A program made the translations under genes and the position numbers. Positions 12,385 to 53,884 of a stretch of DNA of 64,000 bases are shown here, one piece after another. The stretch lies in the sequence record MH359124. One strand, written 5' to 3'. Source of the DNA: Escherichia phage SF. Every line of letters begins with the position of its first letter. The first letter of the stretch is position 1. The notes under the pieces were generated by a model. That model saw only the letters and a list, made by a program, of their open reading frames with translations. It searched no databases and was not told the DNA's origin.

Positions 12385-13070
<686 letters not shown>

Positions 13071-13083
13071 TTTTCAAAAACAG

Positions 13084-13125
13084 TTTACATAAGGATGATG
13101 GCGTGTTACTATCATCCTATCAAAT
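13084..13125 (+). promoter_or_regulatory. early promoter with stem-loop (PeSL-like): GTTTAC -35, TACTAT -10 inside inverted repeat GGATGAT/ATCATCC
   Basis: Sequence cagTTTACataaGGATGATggcgtgtTACTATCATCCtatcaaa upstream of ATG 13147. Confidence 0.6.
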
Positions 13126-13146
13126 AAACAACCTCAAGGAAATAAA

Positions 13147-13458
13147 ATGAAAACCTATCAAGAGTTTATCGCTGAAGCTACTAAAGCCGATAAAAATTTT
13201 ATTATTAACACCACCGGTCCGTTAGATGATGAATACGCTAATGCTATTATTAAGTCAATTTCTAATCAAGGCGTTGAAGTAACAAATTTCGAATATAAGA
13301 AAAATGATACTTATATGATAATTAGTATCAAAAAAGGTTCAAAAGCCAAAATTAAATCCGCATTTGGTGTTATGCGAGTTGACCAAATCGATAACCACGA
13401 TTTTTCACAAACAGGGGCCAAACGCCAAAATACCATTTCTTCTAAAGGCATAAAATAA
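13147..13458 (+). CDS. internal-protein-like injected protein with capsid targeting sequence
   Basis: N-terminus MKTYQEFIAEA equals T4 IP capsid-targeting sequence; 103 aa. Confidence 0.7.
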   Translation: MKTYQEFIAEATKADKNFIINTTGPLDDEYANAIIKSISNQGVEVTNFEYKKNDTYMIISIKKGSKAKIKSAFGVMRVDQIDNHDFSQTGAKRQNTISSKGIK

Positions 13459-13500
13459 TTTACAACACGATAGGACTATGTTATAATAGTCCTATCAAAA
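13458..13500 (+). promoter_or_regulatory. PeSL-like early promoter: TATAAT flanked by GATAGGACTA / TAGTCCTATC
   Basis: aatttacaacacGATAGGACTAtgtTATAATAGTCCTATCaaaac. Confidence 0.6.
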
Positions 13501-13519
13501 CAACCAAATGGAACCTAAA

Positions 13520-13783
13520 ATGAAAACTTTCAACGAATTCATCTCAGAATCGTCTGGTGTGAAAATTAACAAAGCGGTCAATCAGGTTATTGCTGATATT
13601 CTTAATTTGTATAACATTGACTTAACTCCGCATATCACGCTTGGTAACAAACGAAACTTTTTCATATTTGACACATCCGAACTTGATGAAAATCAGTTCA
13701 ATAACATTCAACGTTTTGCGAATGATAAAGGTCTTCGACACGAGCCTGGCGGCTATAAAAAATACGCAATATATTTGAAATAA
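13520..13783 (+). CDS. internal-protein-like protein (CTS variant MKTFNEFISE)
   Basis: Start at internal ATG; CTS-like N-terminus; 87 aa. Confidence 0.6.
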   Translation: MKTFNEFISESSGVKINKAVNQVIADILNLYNIDLTPHITLGNKRNFFIFDTSELDENQFNNIQRFANDKGLRHEPGGYKKYAIYLK

Positions 13784-13785
13784 AG

Positions 13786-13828
13786 GTATACAAGCCTATA
13801 GGGATATGTTATAGTAGTCCTATCAAAA
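13786..13828 (+). promoter_or_regulatory. PeSL-like early promoter (GTATAC -35, TATAGT -10 in imperfect inverted repeat)
   Basis: gtatacaagcctatagggatatgtTATAGTAGTCCTATCaaaacaa. Confidence 0.5.
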
Positions 13829-13852
13829 CAAATGAGTAAATGGAGAAATAAA

Positions 13853-14038
13853 ATGAAACGCGCTGAACTGATTCGTAATGTTGCTATAGTAATTGCTTCA
13901 ATGGCTTTTAGTTTTTCGATGTTTGTAGGATTCATTTGTGGACTACTGACAACAACTGAAAACTCTATCTCATTGGTAGTAGCATTTCTAATCGGCTTAA
14001 TCGCTATCGTTATGGATAAAATTGCAAAAGGTGAGTAA
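13853..14038 (+). CDS. small membrane protein (2 predicted TM helices)
   Basis: MKRAELIRNVAIVIASMAFSFSMFVGFICGLL; ATG after GGAG. Confidence 0.55.
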   Translation: MKRAELIRNVAIVIASMAFSFSMFVGFICGLLTTTENSISLVVAFLIGLIAIVMDKIAKGE

Positions 14039-14039
14039 A

Positions 14040-14402: not shown

Positions 14403-14689
14403 TTCTTTATGCTAAAGTAAAATCTGTCGAGAATGGATATGAAAGCGATCAACGTGCAGCTAAAGCACTAGTCGATGACTATGGTATTTTGACTAATTTT
14501 GAAGTTGAAAAGGTTTACATCGACCGTTCGTCTTCACAGGTTAAATTGCTCTGTGAAGATGATAAATTTAACACAGTTAACTTTGATTTCTTTATTGAAA
14601 CAGAAAAAGGCCCTCTTGAATATGATATTTTCAAGAATCCTTTGAAATTACGTTGCATTGAATATAATTACATTAATATGGTACGGTGA
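14399..14689 (+). CDS. hypothetical protein
   Basis: 96 aa ORF, ATGA start/stop overlap with upstream gene. Confidence 0.55.
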   Translation: MILYAKVKSVENGYESDQRAAKALVDDYGILTNFEVEKVYIDRSSSQVKLLCEDDKFNTVNFDFFIETEKGPLEYDIFKNPLKLRCIEYNYINMVR

Positions 14690-14693
14690 TTAA

Positions 14694-15362: not shown

Positions 15363-15368
15363 TATATT

Positions 15369-15809: not shown

Positions 15810-16120
15810 AAGCCGGGTCGCTACCGGTAAGTCGTCGGACTGATGTTCCCTGCGTAAGGACTGGTCTTAAATAAATCTTTATGATTTGTTAATATCCCCT
15901 TACATCACAGCAGAAACGGCGCACAGAATTATCGATTCGAGGAAATATCTTTGCCGTAAGCCGAGTAGCGTTTTTGACGGAACGTTCGGATATGGTCGAG
16001 ATATGGCCTTTTAAAAATATTGAGTAGCGTCAACTGCTTAATAACCGGGTTCGAATCCCGGCGTTTCGTACAAACACTTGCCTTAGCAGGTGGAACCCCG
16101 ACAAGGTTGCCGCAAGGCAT
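15810..16120 (+). ncRNA. tRNA-like structured small RNA region (possible rnaC/rnaD-type stable RNAs)
   Basis: No convincing protein ORF; canonical T-arm CCGGG-TTCGAAT-CCCGG at 16045-16061 with possible acceptor pairing CGGAACG/CGTTTCG; multiple hairpins; ends at strong terminator. Confidence 0.35.
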
Positions 16121-16149
16121 AGCCCCTTCCGAAAGGTTGGGGCTTTTTG
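16121..16149 (+). terminator. rho-independent terminator AGCCCC-TTCCGAAAGGTT-GGGGCT-TTTTT (repeat copy 1)
   Basis: GC stem plus T-run. Confidence 0.7.
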
Positions 16150-16193
16150 GCATAATAATAAATAGATAAGTTAATTAACTTAGGAAAAGCAAA

Positions 16194-16804: not shown

Positions 16805-16862
16805 TTTAAAAATTTTTTTTCACAAAACTGTTTACATCCCTGTTCTTCCGTGGTACTATACA
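16805..16862 (+). promoter_or_regulatory. early promoter with upstream A/T tract (GTTTAC -35, TACTAT -10)
   Basis: aaaaatttttttt...ctGTTTACatccctgttcttccgtggTACTATac. Confidence 0.5.
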
Positions 16863-16901
16863 ACTATCAACTACCGATACAGAAAAAACTTGGAGAATGA
16901 A

Positions 16902-17165
16902 ATGGATAATTACGGCGAACTGTTCAACTTCTTTATGAAATGTGTTCCAGAAGATTTCGGACGTACGGTGAATGATATTAAAGTTATCGGTCCTGAACAC
17001 CCTGTGTATGAAACCTATGCAGTAATGGGTAATGAAGACGGACAGTGGTATACAATTAAAGTTGTGATTAATATGTTCTCGGCCGAAGGCTACGCCAAAT
17101 CGTCTACCAAAGTTTACCATGATAACGATTTTGATGCGGAAGATTATTTCAATAATATGAAATAA
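16902..17165 (+). CDS. hypothetical protein
   Basis: ATG after GGAG; MDNYGELFNFFMKC. Confidence 0.5.
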   Translation: MDNYGELFNFFMKCVPEDFGRTVNDIKVIGPEHPVYETYAVMGNEDGQWYTIKVVINMFSAEGYAKSSTKVYHDNDFDAEDYFNNMK

Positions 17166-17167
17166 AT

Positions 17168-17205
17168 GTGTACATGGGCTCATGATTAAGATATTATGAG
17201 CCCTA
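17168..17205 (+). promoter_or_regulatory. PeSL-like promoter (TGTACA -35; TATTAT -10 inside GGGCTCAT / ATGAGCCC)
   Basis: gTGTACAtGGGCTCATgattaagaTATTATGAGCCCtatt. Confidence 0.55.
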
Positions 17206-17223
17206 TTAATGAGAAAGAATGTT

Positions 17224-17529
17224 ATGAGTCTTTATACTGAACTGAATAAAAAATCTGAAGAATCTGCTGAAACTATTTTTAAAAACGTGCAAAAGCGTAT
17301 TTTAGAAAAGATGTATAACACTGCAGCTAAAGGTGAAAAATCTTGCCGGTTTCCGATGAGGTGTTCTTCTGATTTATGCGCAAATACTATTGAATGGCTG
17401 GAAAGTGAAGGTCTTACGGTAGAGAAAAACCCGGCGACTTCTATTGACAGTGAATCATATATTAGTATTTCTTGGGATAAACCACGTATTAATGAAGGAC
17501 ACTACAAGTTGTTGAGTTGGAAAAATTAA
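17224..17529 (+). CDS. hypothetical protein
   Basis: MSLYTELNKKSEESAETIF; ATG after GAGAAAG. Confidence 0.5.
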   Translation: MSLYTELNKKSEESAETIFKNVQKRILEKMYNTAAKGEKSCRFPMRCSSDLCANTIEWLESEGLTVEKNPATSIDSESYISISWDKPRINEGHYKLLSWKN

Positions 17530-17595
17530 AATAATGATGTACAAGCACCAAAGATGGTGATACTATAGACTTATCAACTACAGAGGAGAAACAAA

Positions 17596-17823
17596 ATGGC
17601 TACAGTTAGTATTGATGTCGTTGATTATGAATACACTGAAGAAGTTATTCGCAACCGTCACCCTGAAGTTCGTATCGATTCAGTCCAAGATTCCAAGTTC
17701 TGGACAACTGAGCTTAATCTGAGTGGTCCTTATGAAGCTGTTAAGAAGTTCATGGTTGAAGAATACTGTGAAGGCATGCACCCGGAAGACGCCGAGTTTT
17801 ATGTCAATTTGATTAAAAAATAA
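17596..17823 (+). CDS. hypothetical protein
   Basis: 75 aa ORF with GGAG RBS. Confidence 0.55.
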   Translation: MATVSIDVVDYEYTEEVIRNRHPEVRIDSVQDSKFWTTELNLSGPYEAVKKFMVEEYCEGMHPEDAEFYVNLIKK

Positions 17824-17868
17824 TTTACAAACTCTTGAGAGCAGAGTATAATGCTCTCATTGGATAAT
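17823..17868 (+). promoter_or_regulatory. PeSL-like promoter (TTTACA -35; TATAAT -10 inside GAGAGCA / TGCTCTC)
   Basis: aatTTACAaactcttGAGAGCAgagTATAATGCTCTCattggataataaa; paralogous to element at 47951. Confidence 0.6.
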
Positions 17869-17893
17869 AAACCACCAATTGAAAGGTAATAAT

Positions 17894-18487
17894 ATGAACA
17901 CACTGAAGAAACTTGTTGAATTCATCCGCACTAAACTGGGTACTGCTATGGCTAAAAATCTAACTGTCGAAGAACAGTATAACGCAGCTGCAGATAAGTT
18001 GATTACCCAAATCAAAGAACTAAAAACGGCTTCTGTTAAATCTATTAATGAAGAAAAACGTATTCGCGAACTTGTTATTGAAAAGAATAAGCAAGCCGCT
18101 TCTAAGGAACGTGAAATTCGTAAGCTCCTGGCTGAAGGACAAGATGTTACCATGCATGCTAAGCTTGGTCTTCTGTATCGTCGAACTGCCGAACAACTTA
18201 ATACAAAAGCTGATGGGTATGCCGCTATGCGAATTGAAATTGCTCGTAAGGTGGTTGAACTTGACGACGCTCGTCAGAATCTGGCAATCAAACTCGAATA
18301 CATTCGTGAAACTCGAGCAGCTAATGCCCTTGGTATCTCTACGGCCGATGATGTAATTGAAATCGCTGCACTGACTAAGGTTGATATCGAAGACACTCTG
18401 ACTCGTGTTGAAACGTTCAATGGCACTCCAACCGGTGTCGAAACCACTTCTGCTGATGTACAAGAATATATTAACTCTTTGAAATAA
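17894..18487 (+). CDS. coiled-coil protein, possibly PspA/IM30-like
   Basis: 198 aa, heptad-rich, Lys/Glu-rich helices; family assignment tentative. Confidence 0.5.
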
Positions 18488-19497: not shown

Positions 19498-19835
19498 CCG
19501 TATGGCCTTCTCTTGGTGAGAACATTCTAATTTTTATTATGAGTATTGGCGTGGGATTTGCCTTTGGATTAGTTGGATTTCTTATTGACGGCGTTGTGTT
19601 AGGATTTATAGGGAACACTGGTGGATTCACAGACCAATGGCAGGACTTACGGTATACCCAAGCCTTTGCATCCATCGCATCATTTTGTACTGTAGTCTAT
19701 TTTTACTATGATTTTATAAACCATAACAAGAAAAATAAAAAGGTTTACGCTTCTCAAATGATTAGTTATAATGAACTCCTAGCTAGACGTGAAAATGAAA
19801 CAATAGAAAACTTTATTAAGGAATGTAGAAAATGA
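19476..19835 (+). CDS. membrane protein with C-terminal ENFIKECRK tail
   Basis: 119 aa; hydrophobic segments; conserved C-terminal motif shared with 21982 and 22975 genes. Confidence 0.55.
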   Translation: MQKPQLLTVWPSLGENILIFIMSIGVGFAFGLVGFLIDGVVLGFIGNTGGFTDQWQDLRYTQAFASIASFCTVVYFYYDFINHNKKNKKVYASQMISYNELLARRENETIENFIKECRK

Positions 19836-20628: not shown

Positions 20629-20672
20629 CAGTTTACAACAAGATAGGGCTATGTTATAGTAGTCCTATCAAA
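20629..20672 (+). promoter_or_regulatory. PeSL-like promoter (GTTTAC; TATAGT inside GATAGGGCTA / TAGTCCTATC)
   Basis: caGTTTACaacaaGATAGGGCTAtgtTATAGTAGTCCTATCaaa. Confidence 0.6.
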
Positions 20673-20688
20673 TTAAATGGAGTCCACA

Positions 20689-20928
20689 ATGATTTATTAC
20701 GAAAGTATTGGAACCGAAGTGGTTGCTAAAACCATTACTCGTGAAAAGTTTGCAAAGATATTCGATATGCGTTATAAAAAATCTGAACACAAAGGCATTC
20801 GATTCGAAGATGCGCACTGTACAATTTGCCCTTATAATGAAGACATAAATGGTACAATCGTTCCATTGGTAGAGGCTTCACATGATGACCTCTGGGATGA
20901 ATATAATATCGCATGTCGCGAAATTTAA
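20689..20928 (+). CDS. hypothetical protein
   Basis: ATG after GGAG; MIYYESIGTEVVAK. Confidence 0.5.
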   Translation: MIYYESIGTEVVAKTITREKFAKIFDMRYKKSEHKGIRFEDAHCTICPYNEDINGTIVPLVEASHDDLWDEYNIACREI

Positions 20929-21920: not shown

Positions 21921-21966
21921 CTGTTTACATAATTATAGGGACTATGTTATAGTAGTCCTATTAAAA
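21921..21966 (+). promoter_or_regulatory. PeSL-like promoter (GTTTAC; TATAGT inside ATAGGGACTA / TAGTCCTAT)
   Basis: ctGTTTACataattATAGGGACTAtgtTATAGTAGTCCTATtaaaac. Confidence 0.6.
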
Positions 21967-21981
21967 CATGAGGAGAATATT

Positions 21982-22287
21982 ATGAAATTAACAGAAACCA
22001 ATCGAATCGGTCTTTTAACAATATTTGCATCACCTTTTTACGCAGCTCTTTCTGTTGCAGTATTACAAAAGGCCTACGATATGGATGGAGTTACTGGTTT
22101 TGTATTCTTATCGCCGTTTTTGCTATTCGTTGGAGCATTGTTATTATACGCCACGACTAGTTTCGACCATAATGTCTGGGTCAATTATAAATGTAAATTG
22201 TCTGAAGAAGAACACGCAGAAGCTCGTAAAAAAGCTATTGAATCTACCAATCTAGAAAATTTCATTAAAGAATGTCGAGGAAAATAA
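21982..22287 (+). CDS. membrane protein with C-terminal ENFIKECRGK tail
   Basis: 101 aa; 2 hydrophobic helices. Confidence 0.55.
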   Translation: MKLTETNRIGLLTIFASPFYAALSVAVLQKAYDMDGVTGFVFLSPFLLFVGALLLYATTSFDHNVWVNYKCKLSEEEHAEARKKAIESTNLENFIKECRGK

Positions 22288-24948: not shown

Positions 24949-25004
24949 TGTTTACTTCCTCCAAGGGTTTTGATACTATACATTCATCAACTACTTGGAG
25001 GAAA
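24947..25004 (+). promoter_or_regulatory. early promoter (GTTTAC, TACTAT) with arms TTCCTCCAAG / CTTGGAGGAA pairing upstream region to the denV RBS
   Basis: gtGTTTACTTCCTCCAAGggttttgaTACTATacattcatcaactaCTTGGAGGAAattATG. Confidence 0.5.
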
Positions 25005-25006
25005 TT

Positions 25007-25420
25007 ATGACTCGTATCAATTTAACACTTGTTTCTGAACTGACCGACCAACATCTTATGGCTGAGTATCGTGAATTACCACGCGTATTTGGTGCAGTCC
25101 GTAAACATGTTCAAAACGGTAAACGTGTAAAGGATTTTAAAATCTCTCCAACATTTATCTTAGGCACAGGTCACGTAACATTCTTTTACGACAAACTCGA
25201 ATTTTTACGTTTACGTCAAATCGAGCTAATCGCTGAATGCTTGAAACGTGGTTTCAAAATCAAGGACACAACTGTCCAGGATATTTCCGACATCCCTGCC
25301 GAATTTCGTAATAATTATATCCCGACTGAAGCGTCCATTGCGATAAGTCAAGCACGCTTAGACGAAAAAATTGCCCAACGTCCTACTTGGTACAAATACT
25401 ATGGTAAATCAATTTACTAA
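25007..25420 (+). CDS. denV: endonuclease V, pyrimidine dimer DNA glycosylase (DenV)
   Basis: [35 protein letters not shown]...; matches T4 DenV (137 aa). Confidence 0.95.
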
Positions 25421-25449: not shown

Positions 25450-25500
25450 CAGTTTACGCTTAAGTATTAATATGGTATAATTACTCTATCAAAACAAACA
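25450..25500 (+). promoter_or_regulatory. early promoter (GTTTAC -35, TATAAT -10)
   Basis: caGTTTACgcttaagtattaatatggTATAATtactctatcaaaacaa. Confidence 0.55.
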
Positions 25501-25511
25501 AGGAAACAAAA

Positions 25512-25814
25512 ATGAAAACATATCAAGAATTTATTACCGAAGCGCGAGTGAGTGCAGGTAAATTAGAAGCCGCTATAAATAAAAAGGCCCATTCATTTCA
25601 CGATTTGTCCGATAAAGACCGTAAGAAACTTGTAAGCCTTTATATTGACAAAGAGCGTATTCTCGCTCTTCCTGGCGCTAATGAAGGTAAACAGGCCAAG
25701 CCTTTGAATGCTGTCGAAAAGAAAATTGATAACTTTGCTTCTAAATTCGGTATGTCTATGGATGACCTTCAGCAAGCGGCTATCGAAGCAGCTAAAGTAA
25801 TTAAAGGTAAATAA
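25512..25814 (+). CDS. ipII: internal protein II-like (CTS MKTYQEFITEA)
   Basis: 100 aa; N-terminal CTS; resembles recalled T4 IPII; next to denV as in T4. Confidence 0.65.
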   Translation: MKTYQEFITEARVSAGKLEAAINKKAHSFHDLSDKDRKKLVSLYIDKERILALPGANEGKQAKPLNAVEKKIDNFASKFGMSMDDLQQAAIEAAKVIKGK

Positions 25815-25868
25815 CAGTTTACTTTCTCCTAGAATTGTGATAGTATATTCATAATTACTTGGAGAGGT
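25814..25868 (+). promoter_or_regulatory. PeSL-like early promoter (GTTTAC; TAGTAT) with CTCC/GGAG arms
   Basis: caGTTTACtttctcctagaattgtgaTAGTATattcataattacttGGAGAGG. Confidence 0.45.
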
Positions 25869-25986
25869 AAAATGACTCAATGAAAAAATTTTAATGAAGC
25901 CACACTGGTATAAGTATTAAGGCAAAAATATTTACATTCAAATAACATGGGAACAAGCTGGACCTCATGATTCTATGAGGGATTCC

Positions 25987-28498: not shown

Positions 28499-28552
28499 TT
28501 GTTTACTTCTCCTCTAGATGTGTTACTATAGACCTGTCAACTAGAGGAGAAA
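28499..28552 (+). promoter_or_regulatory. PeSL-like early promoter with SD-containing stem (TCTCCTCTAG / CTAGAGGAGA, TACTAT -10 in loop)
   Basis: GTTTACTTCTCCTCTAGatgtgtTACTATagacctgtcaaCTAGAGGAGAaatcaaaATG. Confidence 0.6.
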
Positions 28553-28557
28553 TCAAA

Positions 28558-29016
28558 ATGACTATCAATTCAGACGTTTTTATCCGCCGTAATAAACTCC
28601 GTCGAATCTTTGAAACGGAGTTCCGCAAAATAAATGCTGGTATAAAAGATGCTGCAAAGTCTCTTGGACTACCAGGCTTTCATATCAAGTATTCTCAACA
28701 TCTCTTAGATCGTGCTATCCAGAGAGAAATAGATGAGAATTACGTTTTTGAATTATTTCGTAAAGTAAAAAATCATGTTAAAGAAGTTGCAGAATTTTTA
28801 TCAATGCCTGCACGTCCAGATGTTGATGAAGATTTTGTCGAAGGTGTCGAATATCGCCCAGGCCGTTTAGAAATAACTGACGGAAATCTTTGGTTAGGAC
28901 TTACAGTTTGTCGCGAAAATCCGGCATTCAAAATGAAGACTCTCCAATGCAGAATGGCTATTATTAACAGTAAACGACTACCAGGAAAAGCTTCTAAAGC
29001 AGTGATTAAAATCTAG
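28558..29016 (+). CDS. regB: RegB site-specific endoribonuclease
   Basis: MTINSDVFIRRNKLRR...YSQHLLDRAIQREIDE...; matches T4 RegB (152 aa). Confidence 0.9.
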   Translation: MTINSDVFIRRNKLRRIFETEFRKINAGIKDAAKSLGLPGFHIKYSQHLLDRAIQREIDENYVFELFRKVKNHVKEVAEFLSMPARPDVDEDFVEGVEYRPGRLEITDGNLWLGLTVCRENPAFKMKTLQCRMAIINSKRLPGKASKAVIKI

Positions 29017-32128: not shown

Positions 32129-32184
32129 CAGTTTACTTCTCCTCAGGTTGTGTTATAGTAGACCTTACTTACTAGAGGAGAACG
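32129..32184 (+). promoter_or_regulatory. PeSL-like early promoter with SD-containing stem (TTCTCCTC / GAGGAGAA; TATAGT in loop)
   Basis: caGTTTACTTCTCCTCaggttgtgtTATAGTagaccttacttactaGAGGAGAAcgttATG. Confidence 0.6.
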
Positions 32185-32186
32185 TT

Positions 32187-32366
32187 ATGTCACGTAAAGA
32201 AAAAATTTCTAAGTTAATGTTTTTAATTGAAGAGTACGCTAACGCTGTATCCGATTGGGAAAATGCCCACGGGTGTGAAGACGGTGATATCGATATCAAT
32301 AAGGCAATGAAAAAGATGGCTGAAGCCCACACCGAATTGCAAATGTATGTTAACGAGATTATGTGA
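32187..32366 (+). CDS. hypothetical protein
   Basis: MSRKEKISKLMFLIEEYANAV. Confidence 0.5.
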   Translation: MSRKEKISKLMFLIEEYANAVSDWENAHGCEDGDIDINKAMKKMAEAHTELQMYVNEIM

Positions 32367-32373: not shown

Positions 32374-32580
32374 ATGCTTTACGATTATACCGGAAAATCT
32401 GAAGACGGTGTACTTGAACTTTTACCTGAAAGCGCTGAAGATGATGATATGGTGGTGATGTTTTGTAAAAATGGTCCTGGGGATAAGGGATGGATTTATC
32501 TTCGCCAAGAAAATGACTTAATTGTTTTGGACCCTAAACAAGTTGAAGAACTTTATCAACATTTAAAACACAATCGGTAG
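32374..32580 (+). CDS. hypothetical protein
   Basis: ATG after GAGG; MLYDYTGKSEDG. Confidence 0.5.
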   Translation: MLYDYTGKSEDGVLELLPESAEDDDMVVMFCKNGPGDKGWIYLRQENDLIVLDPKQVEELYQHLKHNR

Positions 32581-32626
32581 TTTACGACTTGGTAGGACTA
32601 TGATATAGTAATCCTACCAAAACAAA
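32578..32626 (+). promoter_or_regulatory. PeSL-like promoter (GTTTAC; TATAGT inside GGTAGGACTA / TAATCCTACC)
   Basis: aGTTTACgacttGGTAGGActatgaTATAGTaaTCCTACCaaaacaa. Confidence 0.6.
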
Positions 32627-32637
32627 TGGAGAACAAA

Positions 32638-32748
32638 ATGAAACTTTTGCTTATCGCTTATGTTGTAGTACAATACAATTATCCGATGTTTACTTATAAC
32701 ATGGTAAACAGCATAGTGAATCTTATTGAAACGAGTATGGTAAAATGA
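32638..32748 (+). CDS. small hydrophobic peptide (36 aa)
   Basis: ATG after GGAG; MKLLLIAYVVVQYNYPMF; below track length cutoff. Confidence 0.3.
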   Translation: MKLLLIAYVVVQYNYPMFTYNMVNSIVNLIETSMVK

Positions 32749-34971: not shown

Positions 34972-35016
34972 AGTGTACATGCTTTTAGGATATGTTATTA
35001 TAGACATATCAAAACA
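34972..35016 (+). promoter_or_regulatory. PeSL-like promoter (GTGTAC; TATTAT inside GGATATG / CATATC)
   Basis: taGTGTACatgcttttaGGATATGttatTATAGACATATCaaaacaa. Confidence 0.5.
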
Positions 35017-35031
35017 AGAGGAGAAAACAAA

Positions 35032-35250
35032 ATGAAAACCAAAATGTTAGAAATGATTCGTGAAGCTGGTGATAAAGGTCTTATGGTTAACACTCGTGAT
35101 GCAGACCAACGTCAAGCATTCGGTGAACTGAAATCCAAAGGTCTGGTTAAAGCATCCTTGGGAATCGGTAATGCATTACGAGTCACTTTGACTCCTGCTG
35201 GTAAAGCAGTGTTCTTTCAACCTCTTACCAAAAAATCTCGTCGCAAATAA
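35032..35250 (+). CDS. small basic protein, possible DNA-binding
   Basis: 72 aa, Lys/Arg-rich C-terminus. Confidence 0.5.
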   Translation: MKTKMLEMIREAGDKGLMVNTRDADQRQAFGELKSKGLVKASLGIGNALRVTLTPAGKAVFFQPLTKKSRRK

Positions 35251-35251: not shown

Positions 35252-35296
35252 TGTTTACTTTTGCTTTAAACGTGTTATTATAGACCTATCGAAACG
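35252..35296 (+). promoter_or_regulatory. PeSL-like promoter (GTTTAC; TATTATAGACCTATC)
   Basis: ttGTTTACttttgctttaaacgtgtTATTATAGACCTATCgaaac. Confidence 0.5.
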
Positions 35297-35320
35297 AAAT
35301 GAGTAAATTTGGAGAATAAA

Positions 35321-36301
35321 ATGTTCAACGTTCAAATCAAAAAAGGTATCTATCGTAATAACGAAATCTCTGGTTCTTATGTTGCCACAAAGACCTGGTT
35401 CCCGGCAAAGCTTAATCCTGAATGTTCCCACTTAGGTGATGGTAAAATTTTCGTTATGATTGATGGTTCTGAACGTGGAGTATGGGTCTTCAAATCAGAC
35501 ATCGTAATGGAAGGAGCTGAGACATCACCAGTTGCAGTTGTTGAAAGCACTGAAGATATGAAAACTCGTATCAACAAACGCTTTAAAGTAATGAGCATGA
35601 TGACGAATGGCATTATCGATGGCAAAATTCGTTCACTCATTATTTCAGGTGCAGCTGGTATTGGTAAGACGTATTCTCTGGATAAAGCACTTAATAATGC
35701 TAATGATAACGGTTTCATCAAATACAAAAGCATTAATGGTAAAATCTCTGGTATTGGCCTTTACGAACAACTTTGGCTCAACCGTGATGCAGACAGCGTT
35801 CTCTTAATCGACGACGTTGATGTATTCTCGGATATGGACATCTTGAACCTTCTTAAAGCAGCATTAGATACCGGTGATAAACGCAAAGTTTGTTGGAGCA
35901 CTGCGTCATCTTATCTCGATGATAAGGGTATTGATAAAGAATTTGAGTTTGAAGGTACTATCGTTTTCATTACAAACGTTGATATCGATAAAGAGTTAGA
36001 ACGCGGTTCGAAACTTGCTCCGCACCTTCAAGCTTTAGTATCTCGTTCAGTGTATCTCGACCTTGGAGTACACTCTAATGAAGAGATTATGGTTCGAGTT
36101 GAAGATGTAATATTATCTACTGACATGATGCAGAAACGTGGTCTGACGGATGCAGAAACGTATAAAGCATTGTCCTGGATGAAGGCTAACGTATCTCGTC
36201 TTCGCAATGTATCATTACGTACGGCTCTTTATGTAGCAGATTTTATTTCAACTGATAAAGACGGTTGGGAGGAAATCTCTGAAGTTACACTTCTGAAATA
36301 A
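35321..36301 (+). CDS. AAA-type ATPase
   Basis: Walker A GAAGIGKTYS, Walker B VLLIDDVD; 326 aa. Confidence 0.65.
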   Translation: MFNVQIKKGIYRNNEISGSYVATKTWFPAKLNPECSHLGDGKIFVMIDGSERGVWVFKSDIVMEGAETSPVAVVESTEDMKTRINKRFKVMSMMTNGIIDGKIRSLIISGAAGIGKTYSLDKALNNANDNGFIKYKSINGKISGIGLYEQLWLNRDADSVLLIDDVDVFSDMDILNLLKAALDTGDKRKVCWSTASSYLDDKGIDKEFEFEGTIVFITNVDIDKELERGSKLAPHLQALVSRSVYLDLGVHSNEEIMVRVEDVILSTDMMQKRGLTDAETYKALSWMKANVSRLRNVSLRTALYVADFISTDKDGWEEISEVTLLK

Positions 36302-36653: not shown

Positions 36654-36696
36654 TTGTTTACAAGGTCTATGGTTATGTTATTATAGACCTATCAAC
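36654..36696 (+). promoter_or_regulatory. PeSL-like promoter (GTTTAC; TATTAT inside AGGTCTAT / ATAGACCT)
   Basis: ttGTTTACaAGGTCTATggttatgtTATTATAGACCTatcaac. Confidence 0.6.
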
Positions 36697-36711
36697 TACT
36701 GGAGGTAAAAC

Positions 36712-37239
36712 ATGAACGCTAAAGATATTTTCAACCTGGTAAATTATAACGACGGTAAATTTAAATCTGAAGCACAAAGCAAGTTCTTTAATGACGTTGC
36801 TTATGGTAACGAGATTACCGTGGACGGAGGTCAGATTTTCAAATCTCGTTGGAATTGGATTGCTATCATCGATTCAGTTGGAATTGTGGAAGTCTACAAA
36901 AACACTAACAAAAAACGTACATTATTCTGGTCTCGTGAAACTAACGAGCAGTACAAAAAGGATAAAGCATCTCGTTTATCCAAAGTAACCCAGGAAGATA
37001 TCGAGTTTATCAAGAAAGATATCGAGATGTACGAAAATTTAATCGCTGAAGACCAGGCAGTACTCGATAAGTTTGATGAAATTAAAGCTTCTCGTGAAAT
37101 CCCTGACTTCATGAAAGAAACAGTAAACGAACGATACGCTCTCACTTCAGAACGTATTGCAAACTATACAAAACAGAAAGCAGAACGTATTAGTACTCTT
37201 CGGAAATTTGAAGAACGTTTAAAGACGGTTCACGCATAA
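36712..37239 (+). CDS. hypothetical protein
   Basis: 175 aa. Confidence 0.55.
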   Translation: MNAKDIFNLVNYNDGKFKSEAQSKFFNDVAYGNEITVDGGQIFKSRWNWIAIIDSVGIVEVYKNTNKKRTLFWSRETNEQYKKDKASRLSKVTQEDIEFIKKDIEMYENLIAEDQAVLDKFDEIKASREIPDFMKETVNERYALTSERIANYTKQKAERISTLRKFEERLKTVHA

Positions 37240-37301: not shown

Positions 37302-38297
37302 ATGAGCATTACATCTGATGCGGTAAAACATGAAATTAACGGTTTATGTGCTTCACAGATTAAAGTGTGGTTTAAAGACCATAATGATCGCAGAGCACTT
37401 AATTATGAGCAAATTGCTATCCAAGTTCATCAATTACTGACTAGTAAATTTGATTTTCATATGCCGTCTGAAATCTATACTAATCTGCCGCGAGCACTTA
37501 TTAAAGCGTGTAAAGGTTACGGAAAATCAATGGCCGATGGAATCTTCAGCGCGCTGAATAAACTTAACGTTCTGTCGATGATTAACTCTAACAACATTCT
37601 GCGTAATCTAGGACGTACCGATTTGTTCGGTCGTGAACAGTGTAAAATGCCTTTGAAATGGATTGTTGCTCATCTTAACGAGAACCAAACACGTTTTATG
37701 GCCGTATCAGCACGCTTACAAATGGGCCTAGATCGTCAGATGAACTTTAAAACTCATCCACGTTATTCAGGTTCAACAGACTTTTATAAATGTGAGCTTC
37801 AAAAGGTTGGTGGCAAAACTGTCTTAGTAGTTCGTGTAACGTTTGAAGGACGACGTCAAGGATATTTTGACATAATCGGCTCTGGACTTAAACATTGTGG
37901 ATTTATCGACGAAGTTGATATCAAGCGAGACGGCATTGGATACCGTATTGGATATGTTTGTACTCTTAAAGAAGAGATTTCAGGGCCAGCACCAGGACTA
38001 AAAGACGTTAGATATAAAGACGAGCTCGTTGAAGAAATAAAAGAAGTTGAATATGATATCAACCAAGAAGATGCTCTTAAAGACCTTATTGATGAACTGA
38101 ACCAAGACGTTATTCCTGTTCAGAAATTTGAATCAAAACATGCTGAGCAAATCAAATATTTTGAAGCTTTGATTAACGAACTTAATGTAACTATTCAACA
38201 GACTGACGATGAAATCTCACGATTAGCAGGCTTAAACGGTAAAAATAAAACAGAACGAGCTAATCTTATTCAAGTAGTAAAACTTCTTAAGGAATGA
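37302..38297 (+). CDS. hypothetical protein with C-terminal coiled coil (tandem gene 1 of 3)
   Basis: 331 aa. Confidence 0.55.
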   Translation: MSITSDAVKHEINGLCASQIKVWFKDHNDRRALNYEQIAIQVHQLLTSKFDFHMPSEIYTNLPRALIKACKGYGKSMADGIFSALNKLNVLSMINSNNILRNLGRTDLFGREQCKMPLKWIVAHLNENQTRFMAVSARLQMGLDRQMNFKTHPRYSGSTDFYKCELQKVGGKTVLVVRVTFEGRRQGYFDIIGSGLKHCGFIDEVDIKRDGIGYRIGYVCTLKEEISGPAPGLKDVRYKDELVEEIKEVEYDINQEDALKDLIDELNQDVIPVQKFESKHAEQIKYFEALINELNVTIQQTDDEISRLAGLNGKNKTERANLIQVVKLLKE

Positions 38298-38328
38298 TGT
38301 ACAACCAAGGATGGTTAGAGTATAATAA
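38297..38328 (+). promoter_or_regulatory. promoter family member (TGTACAACCAAGGATGGTTAGAGTATAAT)
   Basis: Near-identical to 39315 element. Confidence 0.55.
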
Positions 38329-38352
38329 ATTTTTCAACATGAGGAATATAAA

Positions 38353-39312
38353 ATGGCTTCTATTACACGTAGAGAACTTATCAAAGAATTTACCTCGAAC
38401 GCATATACCCCAGGTCCTAATCCTATCCGTATGCCTGTAAAGACTCCTGAAGAGATTGAGGAAGTCTGTTCATATTATGGGATTACTTCTCGTAAGTTTA
38501 CTCAATTTGAATGCGTTACTAACACACCCGTTAAAGAGTTCATTAAAAATGGTGAGTTCAGCCGTTTATTAGCCAAACAGAAACTTCGTAATTTTTGTAT
38601 CGGCGGCTACGGACAATATTTTGCTAAACAGTTCAGAAATAACCTTAACAATCTGATGGCCATTGCTTCTCGTATTCGTCCTCAAGCAATTAACATGAAA
38701 CGTTTGAAATATACTTACGATAAGTTAGAAATCATGGTTATCAGCGAGAACGAGTTCACTCTTACGTATAAACCTAAGAATGATAACGTTGCTCGTGTAT
38801 TCCACCAAGCGTTGGAAGTGTTAGGTGATAATATCCACCAGATTAAAGCAATTTATTCTCGTGAGCTTAATATTATCGACCCTATCAAGAATAAGGGCCA
38901 TATCGCTATCCAGGCTCGTGTATCTATTGGTAAAAAGGTTCCTGCGCCATGGTGGCACAAAGACTCTGAATACTATCAAAATCTTAAAAAGGAAAATGCA
39001 TTGTTTGAAGCATCGCTTACTGGGACCCCAATTGAACAGGCCGAAGTCCTAAGTGCTTATTCTACTTCGGGTAAATCAATGTTTAAAGGTTTGCCAAATG
39101 TGTGCAAACTGTCTGCAGTAAAACTAAATGTTTCTAATGACCTTCTTCCGGCCGAAGATTACCATTACAATCAAATCAAGGCCACTGTGGGCCAACTGTC
39201 TGTTGAACTTGACAAAGCACAAGCTAAGCTTCGTGATGCTCAACAAGTAGTTACCAAGCTCCAGTTGCAGTACTCTAAACTTTTTAACGCAATGAATGCA
39301 TTAAAATCATAA
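38353..39312 (+). CDS. hypothetical protein with C-terminal coiled coil (tandem gene 2 of 3)
   Basis: 319 aa. Confidence 0.55.
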   Translation: MASITRRELIKEFTSNAYTPGPNPIRMPVKTPEEIEEVCSYYGITSRKFTQFECVTNTPVKEFIKNGEFSRLLAKQKLRNFCIGGYGQYFAKQFRNNLNNLMAIASRIRPQAINMKRLKYTYDKLEIMVISENEFTLTYKPKNDNVARVFHQALEVLGDNIHQIKAIYSRELNIIDPIKNKGHIAIQARVSIGKKVPAPWWHKDSEYYQNLKKENALFEASLTGTPIEQAEVLSAYSTSGKSMFKGLPNVCKLSAVKLNVSNDLLPAEDYHYNQIKATVGQLSVELDKAQAKLRDAQQVVTKLQLQYSKLFNAMNALKS

Positions 39313-39314: not shown

Positions 39315-39348
39315 CAGTTTACAACCAAGGACGGTTGGAGTATAATCT
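39315..39348 (+). promoter_or_regulatory. promoter family member (GTTTACAACCAAGGACGGTTGGAGTATAAT)
   Basis: GTTTAC -35 and TATAAT -10 with 18 nt spacer. Confidence 0.55.
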
Positions 39349-39374
39349 TTCTATCTTAACGAGAGGAAAATATT

Positions 39375-40319
39375 ATGACACGTTCACATTACATTGATTA
39401 TTTTGCAGGTCTTATCGCTAACGTTCATGCCCAACGTGCTTCTGGTTCATTAGGATTTGATGTTCCACACAGAGTTGTAGTAAGTGACATTCTTCGCGAT
39501 TTTGGTACATACACAGGCCAAGAAAATCATATCTGTAAAGATACTCAGAATGCATATTCTCATTCATTAGGGACACTGCTTCAATGGTTTAAACGTTCTC
39601 GTTTATTATCTTCTACTGTAGCTCGTGATAACATTAAAAACTTTATGAAGCCGAGCTTTATTAAATCTGTGACATCTAAAATTGATTTAGTTGAATTTAC
39701 TATTATTAACGATGTTAAAAAGACTCATTTGGCTGATTGGTTATCTACCATTCCTGAAACTAAATTTGCTGATAAATTTGCTTGTGAATTCAATAACCAA
39801 GTGAATATGCTTTTTAAACATTCACGTAAATTATTCACAGGCGGTGATGGACGCACAAATAAAGTTCATGTTAAAGATTGGGTTACTGCAGTATTCAAAC
39901 CAACTGGTAATGGTAACGCATCATTGTCAATTGATATCCAGGTTCCTTATTACTACTCACGTAATCTCGGTACCATGAAAGCCGAAGAAATTAATAAGCA
40001 CAACAAAACTATTCGTTCGTTGTCTTATAAACTTCGTATGATGTTACAGACTATGGATGTTGTTGAAATGTTCAGCGAAACCGAAGATAACGGTTCAATG
40101 TTATTCAGTTCTCGTATTCAAATTAAGCTGAAGAACCCTAATGTGTTTAAGCCTATTAAAGAACCTAAAGCAGAAAAGGTTGATATCATGGCTGAAGAAC
40201 GTGAGTACCTCAAATCTCGTCTGAAAGAAGTCGAAGCCCAGATTGCAGAACAAACTAAATCGTTAAAAGCTCTGAATGCGAAAGCGGACGGTTTACGAAA
40301 TGCCATTGAGGTTTTATAA
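39375..40319 (+). CDS. hypothetical protein with C-terminal coiled coil (tandem gene 3 of 3)
   Basis: 314 aa. Confidence 0.55.
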   Translation: MTRSHYIDYFAGLIANVHAQRASGSLGFDVPHRVVVSDILRDFGTYTGQENHICKDTQNAYSHSLGTLLQWFKRSRLLSSTVARDNIKNFMKPSFIKSVTSKIDLVEFTIINDVKKTHLADWLSTIPETKFADKFACEFNNQVNMLFKHSRKLFTGGDGRTNKVHVKDWVTAVFKPTGNGNASLSIDIQVPYYYSRNLGTMKAEEINKHNKTIRSLSYKLRMMLQTMDVVEMFSETEDNGSMLFSSRIQIKLKNPNVFKPIKEPKAEKVDIMAEEREYLKSRLKEVEAQIAEQTKSLKALNAKADGLRNAIEVL

Positions 40320-42008: not shown

Positions 42009-42042
42009 CAGTTTACAATGACGAAGAAACGTGTTATGATGA
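42009..42042 (+). promoter_or_regulatory. early promoter (GTTTAC -35, TATGAT -10) preceded by hairpin GGCTCGA/TCGAGCC
   Basis: caGTTTACaatgacgaagaaacgtgtTATGATg. Confidence 0.4.
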
Positions 42043-42080
42043 ACCTTCAATAAATGAATTAATTGATATGGAGTATGGTT

Positions 42081-42491
42081 ATGAATATTTCTGAAACTCG
42101 CGGTAAATGGTTCAAGATCGTTAAAGAAGATGAAGAACTACAAGTCAAGTTTCCTGAATTAAAGAAAGGAACAATCATCAAGGTAATTGGTATTTCAACA
42201 ACGGCTGACCTGGCGAGCGGCATCGTTGAAGTGATGCTGTCTACCGGCGAGAAACTTTGCATCCACGACCGTGATATTGGTTTTTGGTGTTTCTGGGAAT
42301 CCAATTCAATAGATGAACTCGAAGAAATTGACCAAGTAGTTTGTGGCAGTGAACTTGGTGAATTCGAAGGGGAACGTATTTCTTATGCTTTAGCTAAATT
42401 AGCCGCACAAGAAAATAATGACGGCTATGAAGGTAATCTGATGCAAGCCGCAGCTGAATACATTGAATATTTAGAAAGACGTTTAAGTTAA
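42081..42491 (+). CDS. hypothetical acidic protein (position of T4 pin)
   Basis: ORF between nrdC and 49; start uncertain (42063-42081). Confidence 0.5.
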   Translation: MNISETRGKWFKIVKEDEELQVKFPELKKGTIIKVIGISTTADLASGIVEVMLSTGEKLCIHDRDIGFWCFWESNSIDELEEIDQVVCGSELGEFEGERISYALAKLAAQENNDGYEGNLMQAAAEYIEYLERRLS

Positions 42492-46519: not shown

Positions 46520-46572
46520 CAGTTTACATCCTCAATAGATGTGTTAAGATTAAACCATCTTCTACTATAGAG
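46520..46572 (+). promoter_or_regulatory. early promoter (GTTTAC) with imperfect CCTCAATAG / CTATAGAGG arms
   Basis: caGTTTACatCCTCAATAGatgtgttaagattaaaccatcttctaCTATAGAGGaaaataaaATG. Confidence 0.45.
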
Positions 46573-46581
46573 GAAAATAAA

Positions 46582-46764
46582 ATGACAATTGAAGATAAAG
46601 AAATTAAGGTCGACCAGTACTATTCTGTCAACGGTAATGCCGTACAGATAACCAGAGTTTCAAGCCTGGATGTTTGGTACCGTTCAATCAAATATCCAGA
46701 AATTGGTGAAATGCTTTGTGACCGTGGTATCTTCTGTTCAATTGCGAAGGAAATTAAGCCATGA
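46582..46764 (+). CDS. hypothetical protein
   Basis: MTIEDKEIKVDQYYSVNGN. Confidence 0.5.
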   Translation: MTIEDKEIKVDQYYSVNGNAVQITRVSSLDVWYRSIKYPEIGEMLCDRGIFCSIAKEIKP

Positions 46765-47016: not shown

Positions 47017-47310
47017 ATGGGTAAAACATATCGTCGTAAAGATTTGAAAGTTCGTGATTACGACTATTTTGGTAAACGTAAAGCTCCTGACGGTGTTAGC
47101 CACAAAGACATGGTTGAAAATATTTTCCGCTCAGATAAATGGAAACGTATGAAAGGCGTTGATTCTGAAGTCAAGAATGAAATGAATCGACAACTCCGCA
47201 AAGAAGTTCGTAAGTTGAAAAAAGATGTTTACAGTAAAGAAGATTATGATTATAATACTTCTCATACTGAAGCCAAACGTAAAGCTAACGAATGTTATCG
47301 TTACAGTTGA
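47017..47310 (+). CDS. hypothetical basic protein
   Basis: MGKTYRRKDLKVRDYDYFGKRK. Confidence 0.5.
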   Translation: MGKTYRRKDLKVRDYDYFGKRKAPDGVSHKDMVENIFRSDKWKRMKGVDSEVKNEMNRQLRKEVRKLKKDVYSKEDYDYNTSHTEAKRKANECYRYS

Positions 47311-47317
47311 GGAAATT

Positions 47318-47452
47318 ATGAATATCAAACGAATGCTTTTTAAGCAGGGATTATATACTTTAAATGTTAATCCAAAGGGTGATACAACTAAATGGTCTGT
47401 AAATGACTGGATTAAGTTCATCGATGAAAATGGGGCGTGGAACACAAAATGA
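47318..47452 (+). CDS. small hypothetical protein (44 aa)
   Basis: ATG after GAGGAAAT; MNIKRMLFKQGLYTLN. Confidence 0.4.
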   Translation: MNIKRMLFKQGLYTLNVNPKGDTTKWSVNDWIKFIDENGAWNTK

Positions 47453-47649: not shown

Positions 47650-47692
47650 TAGTTTACGATGGTAGGAAGATAATAACAGGTCTTCCTATCGT
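47650..47692 (+). promoter_or_regulatory. PeSL-like promoter (GTTTAC; TAGGAAGA / TCTTCCTA arms)
   Basis: taGTTTACgatggTAGGAAGAtaataacaggTCTTCCTAtcg. Confidence 0.55.
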
Positions 47693-47712
47693 CTTAAAAT
47701 GAGGAAAATATC

Positions 47713-47952
47713 ATGGCCCAAGAATTAGATTTTATCAAATTCAAAAAACACCTCGACGTTAAAATTGGTGATTCAATTGTTAGGATTGAGTATGACATTT
47801 TAACAGATGCTATTACTGTTAGATGTGATGGAAATAGTTTCAGCTTCGATACAACCGAAAACAAATACCCGATCTATAAAGGCATTTTTGATATGGGTGT
47901 TGATATTACTCCACGTGATACAAATTACTTACTTTTCATGCTTAAAAAATAG
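47713..47952 (+). CDS. hypothetical protein
   Basis: 79 aa. Confidence 0.5.
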   Translation: MAQELDFIKFKKHLDVKIGDSIVRIEYDILTDAITVRCDGNSFSFDTTENKYPIYKGIFDMGVDITPRDTNYLLFMLKK

Positions 47953-47995
47953 TATACAAACTCTTGAGAGTATAATTCTCTCATTGGATAATAAA
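47951..47995 (+). promoter_or_regulatory. PeSL-like promoter (GTATAC; TATAAT between GAGAG / CTCTC)
   Basis: aGTATACaaactcttGAGAGTATAATTCTCTCattggataataaa; paralog of 17823 element. Confidence 0.6.
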
Positions 47996-48013
47996 ATAAC
48001 CGAGGAAAATAAT

Positions 48014-48346
48014 ATGTCTACTAAAATCAAAAACGTAGTTAATTCTTTCGCTTTCGATAAAGTTGTTGCTCTTCTGGAATCTGGCAATATTGTTACTCCT
48101 CAAGTTCTTGACGCGTGGGAATTCCGTCTTTATGAAATCATGCAAAAACACGACCAGAAAATTGGACGTAATTCTATTCGTGAAATTCTAGTACAATATA
48201 TTCTTTCTGAATTTGACGTTGCCGCATTTGGTGTTGAATCTAAAGCTTATCAGAAACATGAAATCTCTGAAAAGACTATCCGTCGTATGAAAAAACAACG
48301 TAAGAAAAAATTTGTTGACCTGAAAATTGTTAAGGCGGTAAAATGA
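48014..48346 (+). CDS. hypothetical protein
   Basis: MSTKIKNVVNSFAFDK; ATG after GAGG. Confidence 0.55.
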   Translation: MSTKIKNVVNSFAFDKVVALLESGNIVTPQVLDAWEFRLYEIMQKHDQKIGRNSIREILVQYILSEFDVAAFGVESKAYQKHEISEKTIRRMKKQRKKKFVDLKIVKAVK

Positions 48347-53642: not shown

Positions 53643-53680
53643 CGCTTTAACACGATGTGGTTATAATGACCACATCAAAT
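53643..53680 (+). promoter_or_regulatory. PeSL-like promoter (TATAAT between GATGTGGT / ACCACATC)
   Basis: gctttaacacGATGTGGTTATAATgACCACATCaaa. Confidence 0.55.
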
Positions 53681-53695
53681 TAAATGGAGAACAAC

Positions 53696-53884
53696 ATGGA
53701 GTATTCAACCGGTCAACATCTTCTCGTTGTCCCTGAAATTAAAAAATATGTTTTGACCAATACGTTTTCAGGTGAAGAACATATTGTTACTGAACAAATG
53801 CTCAAATCTGCTTTTAAAGATGAGTATAATAAAATAATGTCTAATCGCAATTCCGCATGGACAGTTACCGACTTCTACGAATAA
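53696..53884 (+). CDS. hypothetical protein
   Basis: ATG after GGAG; MEYSTGQHLLVVPEIKK. Confidence 0.5.
   Translation: MEYSTGQHLLVVPEIKKYVLTNTFSGEEHIVTEQMLKSAFKDEYNKIMSNRNSAWTVTDFYE

Follow-up and report, generated by a model that had tools for sequence, protein, structure and literature searches.

The internal-protein locus of Escherichia phage SF (sequence record MH359124) raises the question of what kind of element is repeated ahead of its small genes: plain early promoters, or mobile cassettes of the promoter early stem-loop (PeSL) type, in which the inverted repeat has a role of its own. The stretch analysed, referred to below as the window, is 64,000 nucleotides long. A sequence-only reading of the window had described more than 20 such elements across 13084-53680, three of them back-to-back at 13084, 13458 and 13786, and had likened them to the mobile regulatory cassettes proposed to mediate modular shuffling in T4-type phages. 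Its observation was largely confirmed and its interpretation is supported by the analysis given here.

Early promoters of the accessory early region

The window matches Mosigvirus phages, with 96.9% identity to PHB12 and 94.5% to RB69 in the interval 12500-15500, and identity to a similar set of relatives is 95-97% across 13000-37900. Judged by these matches, the window belongs to an RB69-like (Mosigvirus) T4-type phage.

A generic promoter and terminator scan was not discriminating, showing no enrichment of sigma70-like matches (77 versus 67 expected), and a dedicated weight matrix was therefore needed. A two-block matrix, iterated from a regular-expression seed, was used to scan the window. 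It identified 24 sites with scores of at least 21.3, the next-best score being 12.1; all of them are located on the plus strand between 13083 and 47227, nearly all directly 5' of an open reading frame (ORF), at gene starts. The count of more than 20 elements and the three focal positions (13083, 13458 and 13786) thus hold, as does the left end of the range, but the last early promoter is at 47227, and the copy placed at '53680' (about 53660-53680) is a MotA-box middle promoter.

The layout of the sites is that of T4-type early promoters: a GTTTAC-like -35 hexamer, a spacer of 17-18 nt after GTTTAC, and TAnnnT with an upstream TG. The -35 hexamer is GTTTAC in 17 of the 24 copies, as had been described for all of them; the other seven carry the variants ATTTAC, GTGTAC, ATGTAC or GTATAC, including focal copies 13458 (ATTTAC) and 13786 (GTATAC). 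The -10 hexamers TATAAT, TACTAT and TATAGT, named earlier, are present in 7, 5 and 5 copies, respectively, and are joined by TATTAT (4) and others (3). TG at -15/-14, giving the extended -10 form TGn-TAnnnT, was found in 18 copies. An A-rich UP-like tract (about -40 to -44) precedes the promoters, each of the six positions that precede GTTTAC being A in 12-22 of the 24 copies, and the A+T content upstream of the promoters is 75% versus 63% in the whole window. The consensus of the start region is ANNCCTATCAA around the predicted start, also written CCTATCAA. Downstream, a box resembling CAAAACAA follows in 7 copies, CAACTAC in 5, and GGAG in 14, so that neither the box nor GGAG is as general as had been supposed; some Shine-Dalgarno sequence (SD) is present in 20 copies, usually with ATG. 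The SD and start codon form the 3' end of the element and the stop codon of the upstream gene its 5' end, the stop codons abutting or overlapping the -35 region at the three focal copies. In the proposed arrangement each early promoter would be bounded by the stop codon of a small gene and by the SD and ATG of the gene that follows.

The same matrix detected 25 sites in RB69, which correspond one-to-one in position to the early-promoter predictions of Nolan et al. 2006 (PMC1524935): all 25 sit exactly 14 nt inside the published promoters. The RB69 counterparts of the focal trio (Additional file 3 of that paper) are given below. The best explanation as a whole, held with high confidence, is that the repeats are sigma70-dependent early promoters of an RB69-like T4-type phage. 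A literature search for RB69 transcript maps found none among the papers available.

The focal elements are as follows.

13083..13149, plus strand: cassette 1 of the internal-protein locus; GTTTAC 13083, TACTAT 13107, ATG 13147 (103-aa internal head protein); stem AGGATGATGG 13092-13101 / CTATCATCCT 13109-13118 encloses the -10 (z -3.4); RB69 Pe:77187. The TTTACA hexamer of this cassette starts at 13084.
13458..13522, plus strand: cassette 2; ATTTAC 13458, TATAAT 13482, ATG 13520 (87-aa internal head protein); stem GATAGGACTAT 13469-13479 / ATAGTCCTATC 13486-13496 encloses the -10 (z -6.3), TATAAT lying inside GATAGGACTA (13469-13478)-tgttataa-TAGTCCTATC (13487-13496); RB69 Pe:76812.
13786..13855, plus strand: cassette 3; GTATAC 13786, TATAGT 13810, ATG 13853 (61 aa, tRNA.4-like); stem at 13786 is a degenerate GATAGG.../...CCTATC copy, not significant (z +0.3 to +0.4); RB69 Pe:76459.

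The internal-protein locus occupies 13083-13853, between 57B and tRNA.4 according to the RB69 annotation, and in PHROG the ORFs that start at 13147 and 13520 hit internal head protein families. That each focal promoter drives one small gene is true of 13083 and 13458, but promoter 13786 heads a multi-gene run, the next early promoter being found only at 16830. All 24 promoters are located inside the accessory early region (13-47 kb; e.x, vs.x, regB, tk, mobD, nrdC.x, 55.x), flanked by late baseplate genes on the left and replication genes on the right. Rfam and tRNA scans of the window detected two tRNAs only; the early promoter elements are covered by no known RNA family.

At the internal-protein locus the repeat runs on into a common MKTYQEFI leader; homology to RB69 stops at 13546, just past this leader, and restarts exactly at 13786. 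A leader of the form MKT(Y/F)xEF(I/L) is common to six ORF starts (13147, 13520, 16194, 24667, 25512 and 26086) and is similar to the sequence that targets T4 internal proteins to the capsid. Four of the five such ORFs scanned have matches in internal head or virion protein families, 26086 lying outside the scan. The leader DNA itself is a dispersed repeat (families D7, D8, D10 and D13) that marks homology breakpoints relative to RB69 and TH58.

Inverted repeats of the promoters

Each element was folded from the -35 to about the ATG and compared with 200 dinucleotide shuffles. Fourteen of the 24 are more stable than the shuffles at p<=0.05 (mean z -2.1); the stems of cassettes 1 and 2 are significant with both RNA and DNA parameters, and cassette 3 is a decayed copy. 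The arms are not a shared motif, as seen from the pairs AGGATGATGG/CTATCATCCT, GATAGGACTAT/ATAGTCCTATC, GGGCTCAT/ATGAGCCC, TGAGAGC/GCTCTCA and GGTCTAT/ATAGACC. The sequence-only reading had placed the -10 inside a repeat shared by the copies; a significant repeat is present in 14 of them, but the arms it named, GATAGGACTA/TAGTCCTATC, were found in only about five (13458, 13786 in degenerate form, 20631, 21923 and 32580). In a chimera test, in which each left half was joined to the right half of every other element, the 24 elements with their own halves average -11.5 kcal/mol versus -7.6 kcal/mol for the chimeras, and none of 20000 permutations reaches the observed mean. The inverted repeats are real and private to each copy.

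Three layouts were distinguished. In the commonest, represented by about 11 copies, the stem encloses the -10, and the 3' arms end 6 to 11 nt past it, which corresponds to -1 to +5 of the predicted start. In the second, the 5' arm, located directly past the -35, pairs with the SD (24950, 25817, 28501, 32131 and 46522); in these five copies and at the middle promoter 11593, the SD or the AUG is paired with a segment upstream of the predicted start of the proximal promoter. The third is a small hairpin within the spacer (17537, 38297 and 39317). Across 60 non-redundant promoters, each of the two main pairing modes is element-specific and significant by itself: the observed pairing of the spacer with the -10 to +8 region was reached in 0 of 20000 permutations, and that of the spacer with the 5' untranslated region and SD in 20 of 20000.

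Private arms are also characteristic of other lineages. For 39 non-redundant promoters of eight loci, from T4-like to 44RR-like phages, own halves average -11.5 kcal/mol versus -7.1 kcal/mol for chimeras (0/20000). At regB, the spacer past the -35 pairs with the SD in RB69-like and T4-like phages and in two further lineages, with flanking sequences that differ; the pairings of the four lineages are TTCTCCTCTAG/CTAGAGGAGAA, TTTTCCTCTTGACTG/CAGTTAAGAGGAGAA, TTTCTCCTCTTTATG/CATAAAGAGGAGAAA and TCTCCTGTAAG/CTTACAGGAGA. In the hand-anchored alignment, six pairs of the regB spacer/SD helix are changed on both sides, i.e., are compensatory across lineages, and the covariation score is 0.267, reached by none of 500 shuffles, with slid controls at 0.05-0.11. 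A MAFFT alignment of the regB leaders was dropped, its arms being out of register, and the alignment anchored on CCT/AGG was used instead. The promoters of e.6 and nrdC.8 retain a hairpin in other lineages, but its arms are new or it has changed from one main layout to the other. In the five close relatives the stems are kept in place. Among the close relatives, substitutions affect 2.4% of paired and 3.5% of unpaired sites, which is too little divergence to be informative on covariation.

The other promoters of the matrix scan and the related elements of the window are listed below.

16830..16904, plus strand: early promoter, no significant stem (matrix and folding).
17168..17226, plus strand: early promoter, stem GGGCTCATGAT 17176-17186 / ATTATGAGCCC 17193-17203 encloses the -10 (z -3.8).
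17537..17598, plus strand: early promoter, small hairpin within the spacer, CACCA 17546-17550 / TGGTG 17555-17559 (matrix and folding).
17823..17896, plus strand: early promoter of an e.6-like gene, stem TGAGAGC / GCTCTCA encloses the -10 (z -3.3).
19743..19834, plus strand: early promoter within the upstream ORF, no significant stem; breakpoint of ECO111 and CCU7 exactly at 19743.
20631..20691, plus strand: early promoter, stem GATAGGGCTAT / GTAGTCCTATC encloses the -10 (z -4.0).
21923..21984, plus strand: early promoter, stem ATAGGGACTAT / GTAGTCCTAT encloses the -10 (z -2.7); adjoins a 662-nt ECO111 insertion.
24950..25009, plus strand: early promoter of a denV-like gene, spacer-SD pairing of TTCCTCCAAG 24956-24965 with CTTGGAGGAA, which includes the SD (z -4.3); the same design is also found at T4-like loci.
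25452..25514, plus strand: early promoter of an internal virion protein gene, no significant stem (matrix and folding).
25817..25875, plus strand: early promoter, spacer TTTCTCC... pairs with the SD region ...GGAGAGG (z -3.2); only a 3-codon ORF follows.
28501..28560, plus strand: early promoter of regB, spacer-SD pairing of TTCTCCTCTAG 28507-28517 with CTAGAGGAGAA 28541-28551, the SD (z -3.4).
32131..32189, plus strand: early promoter of a mobD.2a-like gene, spacer-SD pairing TCTCCTC / GAGGAGA; an intrinsic terminator (32091-32124) stands just before it.
32580..32640, plus strand: early promoter, stem GGTAGGACTAT / GTAATCCTACC encloses the -10 (z -4.5); an A-T pair of the GATAGG/CCTATC copies has become G-C here, a compensatory change.
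34973..35034, plus strand: early promoter, stem GATATG / CATATC encloses the -10 (z -3.4); left partner of a TH58 hybrid promoter.
35253..35323, plus strand: early promoter, no significant stem; right partner of the TH58 hybrid promoter.
36656..36714, plus strand: early promoter of an nrdC.8-like gene, stem AGGTCTATGGT / ATTATAGACCT encloses the -10; other lineages have spacer-SD pairing in its place.
38297..38355, plus strand: early promoter, small hairpin AACCaaggatGGTT within the spacer (matrix and folding).
39317..39377, plus strand: early promoter, small hairpin CAACCaaggacGGTTG within the spacer (matrix and folding).
42011..42083, plus strand: early promoter within the upstream ORF, no significant stem (matrix and folding).
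46522..46584, plus strand: early promoter, spacer-SD pairing TCCTCAATAG / CTATAGAGGA (matrix and folding).
47227..47320, plus strand: early promoter within the upstream ORF, stem around the -10 (z -3.3).
47652..47715, plus strand: decayed 'half' element, GTTTAC and a 14-bp stem-loop without a properly spaced -10 (-23.2 kcal/mol, z -6.5).
47952..48016, plus strand: decayed copy of the 17823 element whose spacer is shortened by deletions (matrix scan).
53643..53698, plus strand: MotA-box middle promoter CGCTTTA-N12-TATAAT, stem GATGTGGT / ACCACATC around the -10 (z -3.7).
16120..16153, plus strand: intrinsic terminator GCCCCTTCCGAAAGGTTGGGGCTTTTT (family D14), also an indel breakpoint; near-identical copies at 16663-16696 and 32091-32124.

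The two decayed elements (47652-47715 and 47952-48016) resemble the 'half PeSLs' described for PST and nt-1. At the MotA-box middle promoter of gene 1 (dNMP kinase; 11593-11660), spacer TAGCTCCAT is complementary to ATGGAGCTA, which comprises the start codon and first codons; the fold (-17.4 kcal/mol, z -4.1) represents start-codon occlusion with a middle promoter inside the hairpin. The promoter core GTTCYTCYRTGGTACTATACAACTATCAACTAC is nearly the same in the window (16830-16880), at L048:2254 and at L048:17464, upstream of unrelated genes; the T4-like copy, at nrdC.8, has it paired with the SD, and the window copy at 16830 has no SD partner. Beyond the 3-codon ORF of promoter 25817 there is a non-coding leader of about 200 nt (25873-26085). 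There are two copies of a 43-nt block, CCAACCTGTAATAAGGTCGAGC.CAA.TGCGGTAATGGGT (25989-26031 and 26487-26529); 60-100 nt separate each from the gene start downstream of it (26086 and 26588), and a similar cgtgccayggaatggc segment follows both. The block, which could be a repeated structured leader or small RNA, had no match in the Rfam scan of the window (regions 25873-26085 and 26440-26587).

Gene exchange at the promoters

Modular shuffling, the second part of the sequence-only interpretation, was assessed by comparing gene content with five relatives (RB69, TH58, ECO111 5-P, PHB12 and CCU7) by means of BLAST chains, breakpoints being taken within 12500-49000. Promoter zones, defined as -50 to +100 of a GTTTAC, make up 9.9% of this region and contain 22 of the 54 unique indel or replacement breakpoints (binomial p 3e-9). 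Breakpoints hit 16 of the 24 promoter-bearing gene junctions versus 15 of the 63 others (Fisher odds ratio 6.4, p 3e-4). Three further breakpoints are located at the thrice-repeated intrinsic terminator of family D14.

Two hybrid promoters of TH58 are exact promoter-to-promoter joints. The first combines the left half of 34973 with the right half of 35253, the crossover lying in the common GTTATTATAGAC, and ORF 35032-35250 is absent. The second is a fusion of promoter 13083 with the leader of the 13520 gene; its crossover lies in CCTATCAAA..AACAAC, and ORF 13147-13458 is missing. Breakpoint enrichment and the TH58 hybrids bear out the proposed shuffling: as far as genome comparison can tell, gene gain and loss in the accessory early region occurs at these promoters. 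Since 60-100 nt of sequence is common to the cassettes, they serve as recombination substrates, independently of the hairpin, and recombination between them deletes, inserts or swaps the intervening ORFs, as the comparison with relatives shows.

In four of the five relatives, indel breakpoints fall on copies of the terminator GCCCCTTCCGAAAGGTTGGGGCTTTTT; one of these indels, a 595-nt insertion, has terminator copies at its flanks (32092-32119). Insertions of 0.7-1.0 kb without promoter association were found inside conserved blocks of ECO111 5-P (8367-9084) and TH58 (42479-43527 and 44742-45626); they map around window positions 10084, 43726 and 44943-45004 (in or beside nrdD) and could be of the homing-endonuclease type.

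Possible role of the hairpins and comparison with known systems

In the proposed mechanism the 5' arm lies in the interval that separates the -35 from the -10, and the 3' arm ends about the predicted start or is itself the downstream SD. With the transcription start placed about 7 nt past the -10, a predicted position, it would fall between or after the arms; RNA of the gene's own promoter would therefore be devoid of the 5' arm, and the geometry suggests that the hairpin would therefore form only in read-through RNA from an upstream promoter. Spacer-SD pairing should then silence translation on read-through RNA, so that only RNA from the gene's own promoter would be translated. Stems that surround the -10 most likely fold the AU-rich promoter sequence away in read-through RNA, where they may act as an insulator, a pause or a 3'-end stabiliser. 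We tentatively propose that a promoter nested in a hairpin confined to read-through RNA is a general, selected design of T4-like early and middle promoters, beyond the few late cases, that its SD-pairing form (regB, denV, nrdC.8 and others) confines translation to the own promoter, and that the cassettes are autonomous, context-insulated units. If this is true, such insulated units could therefore be freely shuffled.

Several observations weigh against the best explanation as a whole. Ten of the 24 promoters have no significant hairpin, and promoter function therefore does not depend on it. The two strands, sense and antisense, are about equal in folding (p 0.18), because of which an RNA-level role is not separable from a DNA-level role. 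The CCT/AGG anchors of the regB structural alignment were set by hand, and among the close relatives 21 altered pairs still pair and 48 no longer do, many of these belonging to weak stems. The association of breakpoints with promoters could arise in part from ORFs travelling with their own promoter rather than from crossovers within promoters. A literature search for transcription start, termination or translation data on this phage found none.

According to another explanation, which appears rather unlikely, the stem-loops are terminators or attenuators of upstream transcription. Terminator function was shown for one G/C-rich stem of RB49, the PeSL211/210 stem-loop cutting lacZ expression about as much as rrnB T1 (Arbiol et al., PMC2839356), and the stems of the window are also located directly past the upstream stop codon. 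They are followed, however, by CAAAACAA or CAACTAC and not by a T-tract, and canonical Rho-independent terminators (a G/C-rich stem, then a T-run) were for this reason rejected as unlikely. The stems are AT-rich and of modest stability (-9 to -19 kcal/mol as RNA), the loop of the spacer-SD pairings is 15-30 nt, the generic terminator scan picks none of the stems, and separate canonical terminators are present in the same region (16120, 16663 and 32091; family D14).

It is quite improbable that the inverted repeats act in DNA, either as cruciforms or hairpins that stimulate recombination or template switching or as palindromic operators for a dimeric regulator that turns early promoters off. 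Arm sequences and the centre of symmetry vary by copy, which leaves no common half-site for a protein and rules out the operator of a single dimeric repressor; extrusion is poor for stems of 7-11 bp whose loops measure 6-30 nt, several of the stems depend on G-T pairs of the plus strand, and the specific targeting of the SD is left unexplained. A DNA-level role would agree with the equal folding of the two strands, with the folding of the stems under DNA parameters as well (z -3 to -4.4), and with crossovers in or beside stems, one of which was mapped by Arbiol in a loop (PMC2839356); the mechanism of early-promoter shut-off is, moreover, described in the literature as incompletely understood.

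That the elements are plain early promoters with incidental inverted repeats, alike through convergent selection for strength and associated with breakpoints through accessory genes travelling with their promoters, is very improbable: the copies without a significant stem, the decayed stem of the third focal copy (13786) and the own promoter present in about half of the relative-specific segments agree with it, but the arms match within a copy and differ between copies (0/20000 here and in other lineages), changes at regB are compensatory, and the TH58 hybrids show crossovers inside the elements.

Nesting of the promoter in a read-through hairpin, the design proposed above, can be compared with published cases. 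In the text of Nolan et al. 2006 on the early promoters of RB69 (PMC1524935), inverted repeats, stem-loops and palindromes were looked for and no mention was found. A literature search for early promoters nested in SD-occluding hairpins likewise found no earlier report among the papers available. In T4 genes e, soc, 49 and I-TevI, a late promoter is nested in a hairpin by which longer transcripts have their ribosome-binding site masked, and only transcripts of the proximal promoter have a free ribosome-binding site; regB and denV are not among the cases of start occlusion in this review of T4 post-transcriptional control (PMC3014915). The spacer-SD elements of the window share the arrangement of the e type, the 5' arm being upstream of the start of the internal promoter and the 3' arm being the SD. 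In the e type, however, late promoters delay expression, whereas the internal promoters of the window are of the early (regB, denV-like and others) or middle type (gene 1, 11593), and by analogy the design would confine translation to the activity of the gene's own promoter. The quantitative covariation of arms and the SD-masking subset nested around early promoters may be new.

The PeSL of Arbiol et al. 2010 (PMC2839356) consists of an AT-rich tract, a sigma70-type early promoter, a stem-loop, an SD and ATG; the stem-loop is mostly between the -35 and -10 or over the -10, and the cassettes are concentrated among small non-essential ORFs. Referring to Repoila et al. 1994, the same paper describes PeSL-like elements with T4 early promoters and weaker AT-rich stems at the internal-protein loci of T-even phages, and regards them as analogues, not homologues, of the RB49 PeSLs. 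The window interval 13083-13853 is that locus, and the arrangement is the same: T4-type early promoters with weak AT-rich stem-loops flank polymorphic internal-protein genes. Comeau et al. 2014 (PMC4122927), from the same authors, proposed PeSLs throughout T4-like phages. The PeSLs of PST and T4 in that work have stem-loops just upstream of the promoter, whereas the significant stems of the window and of the T4-like loci examined straddle the -10 or reach the SD.

The published terminator idea fits these stems poorly, and context-insulated expression from the gene's own promoter only would be a possible purpose of the PeSL stem-loop: the arms covary and straddle the predicted start from T4 to 44RR-like phages, and a conserved subset masks the ribosome-binding site. 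The statistics and the two exact hybrid joints confirm gene gain and loss at these elements. With the PeSLs of RB49 and phi1 (PMC2839356), the elements of the window share all parts and their order, the setting among small accessory ORFs, and promoter-to-promoter crossovers that remove or add ORFs. The RB49 PeSLs differ in having a near-perfect TTGACA-N17-TATAAT and stems with G/C runs, whereas the window has GTTTAC, TGn-TAnnnT and AT-richer, copy-specific stems. This part-by-part likeness supports the assignment of the elements to PeSL-type cassettes, a kind already described, to which the window adds an example from the RB69 group.

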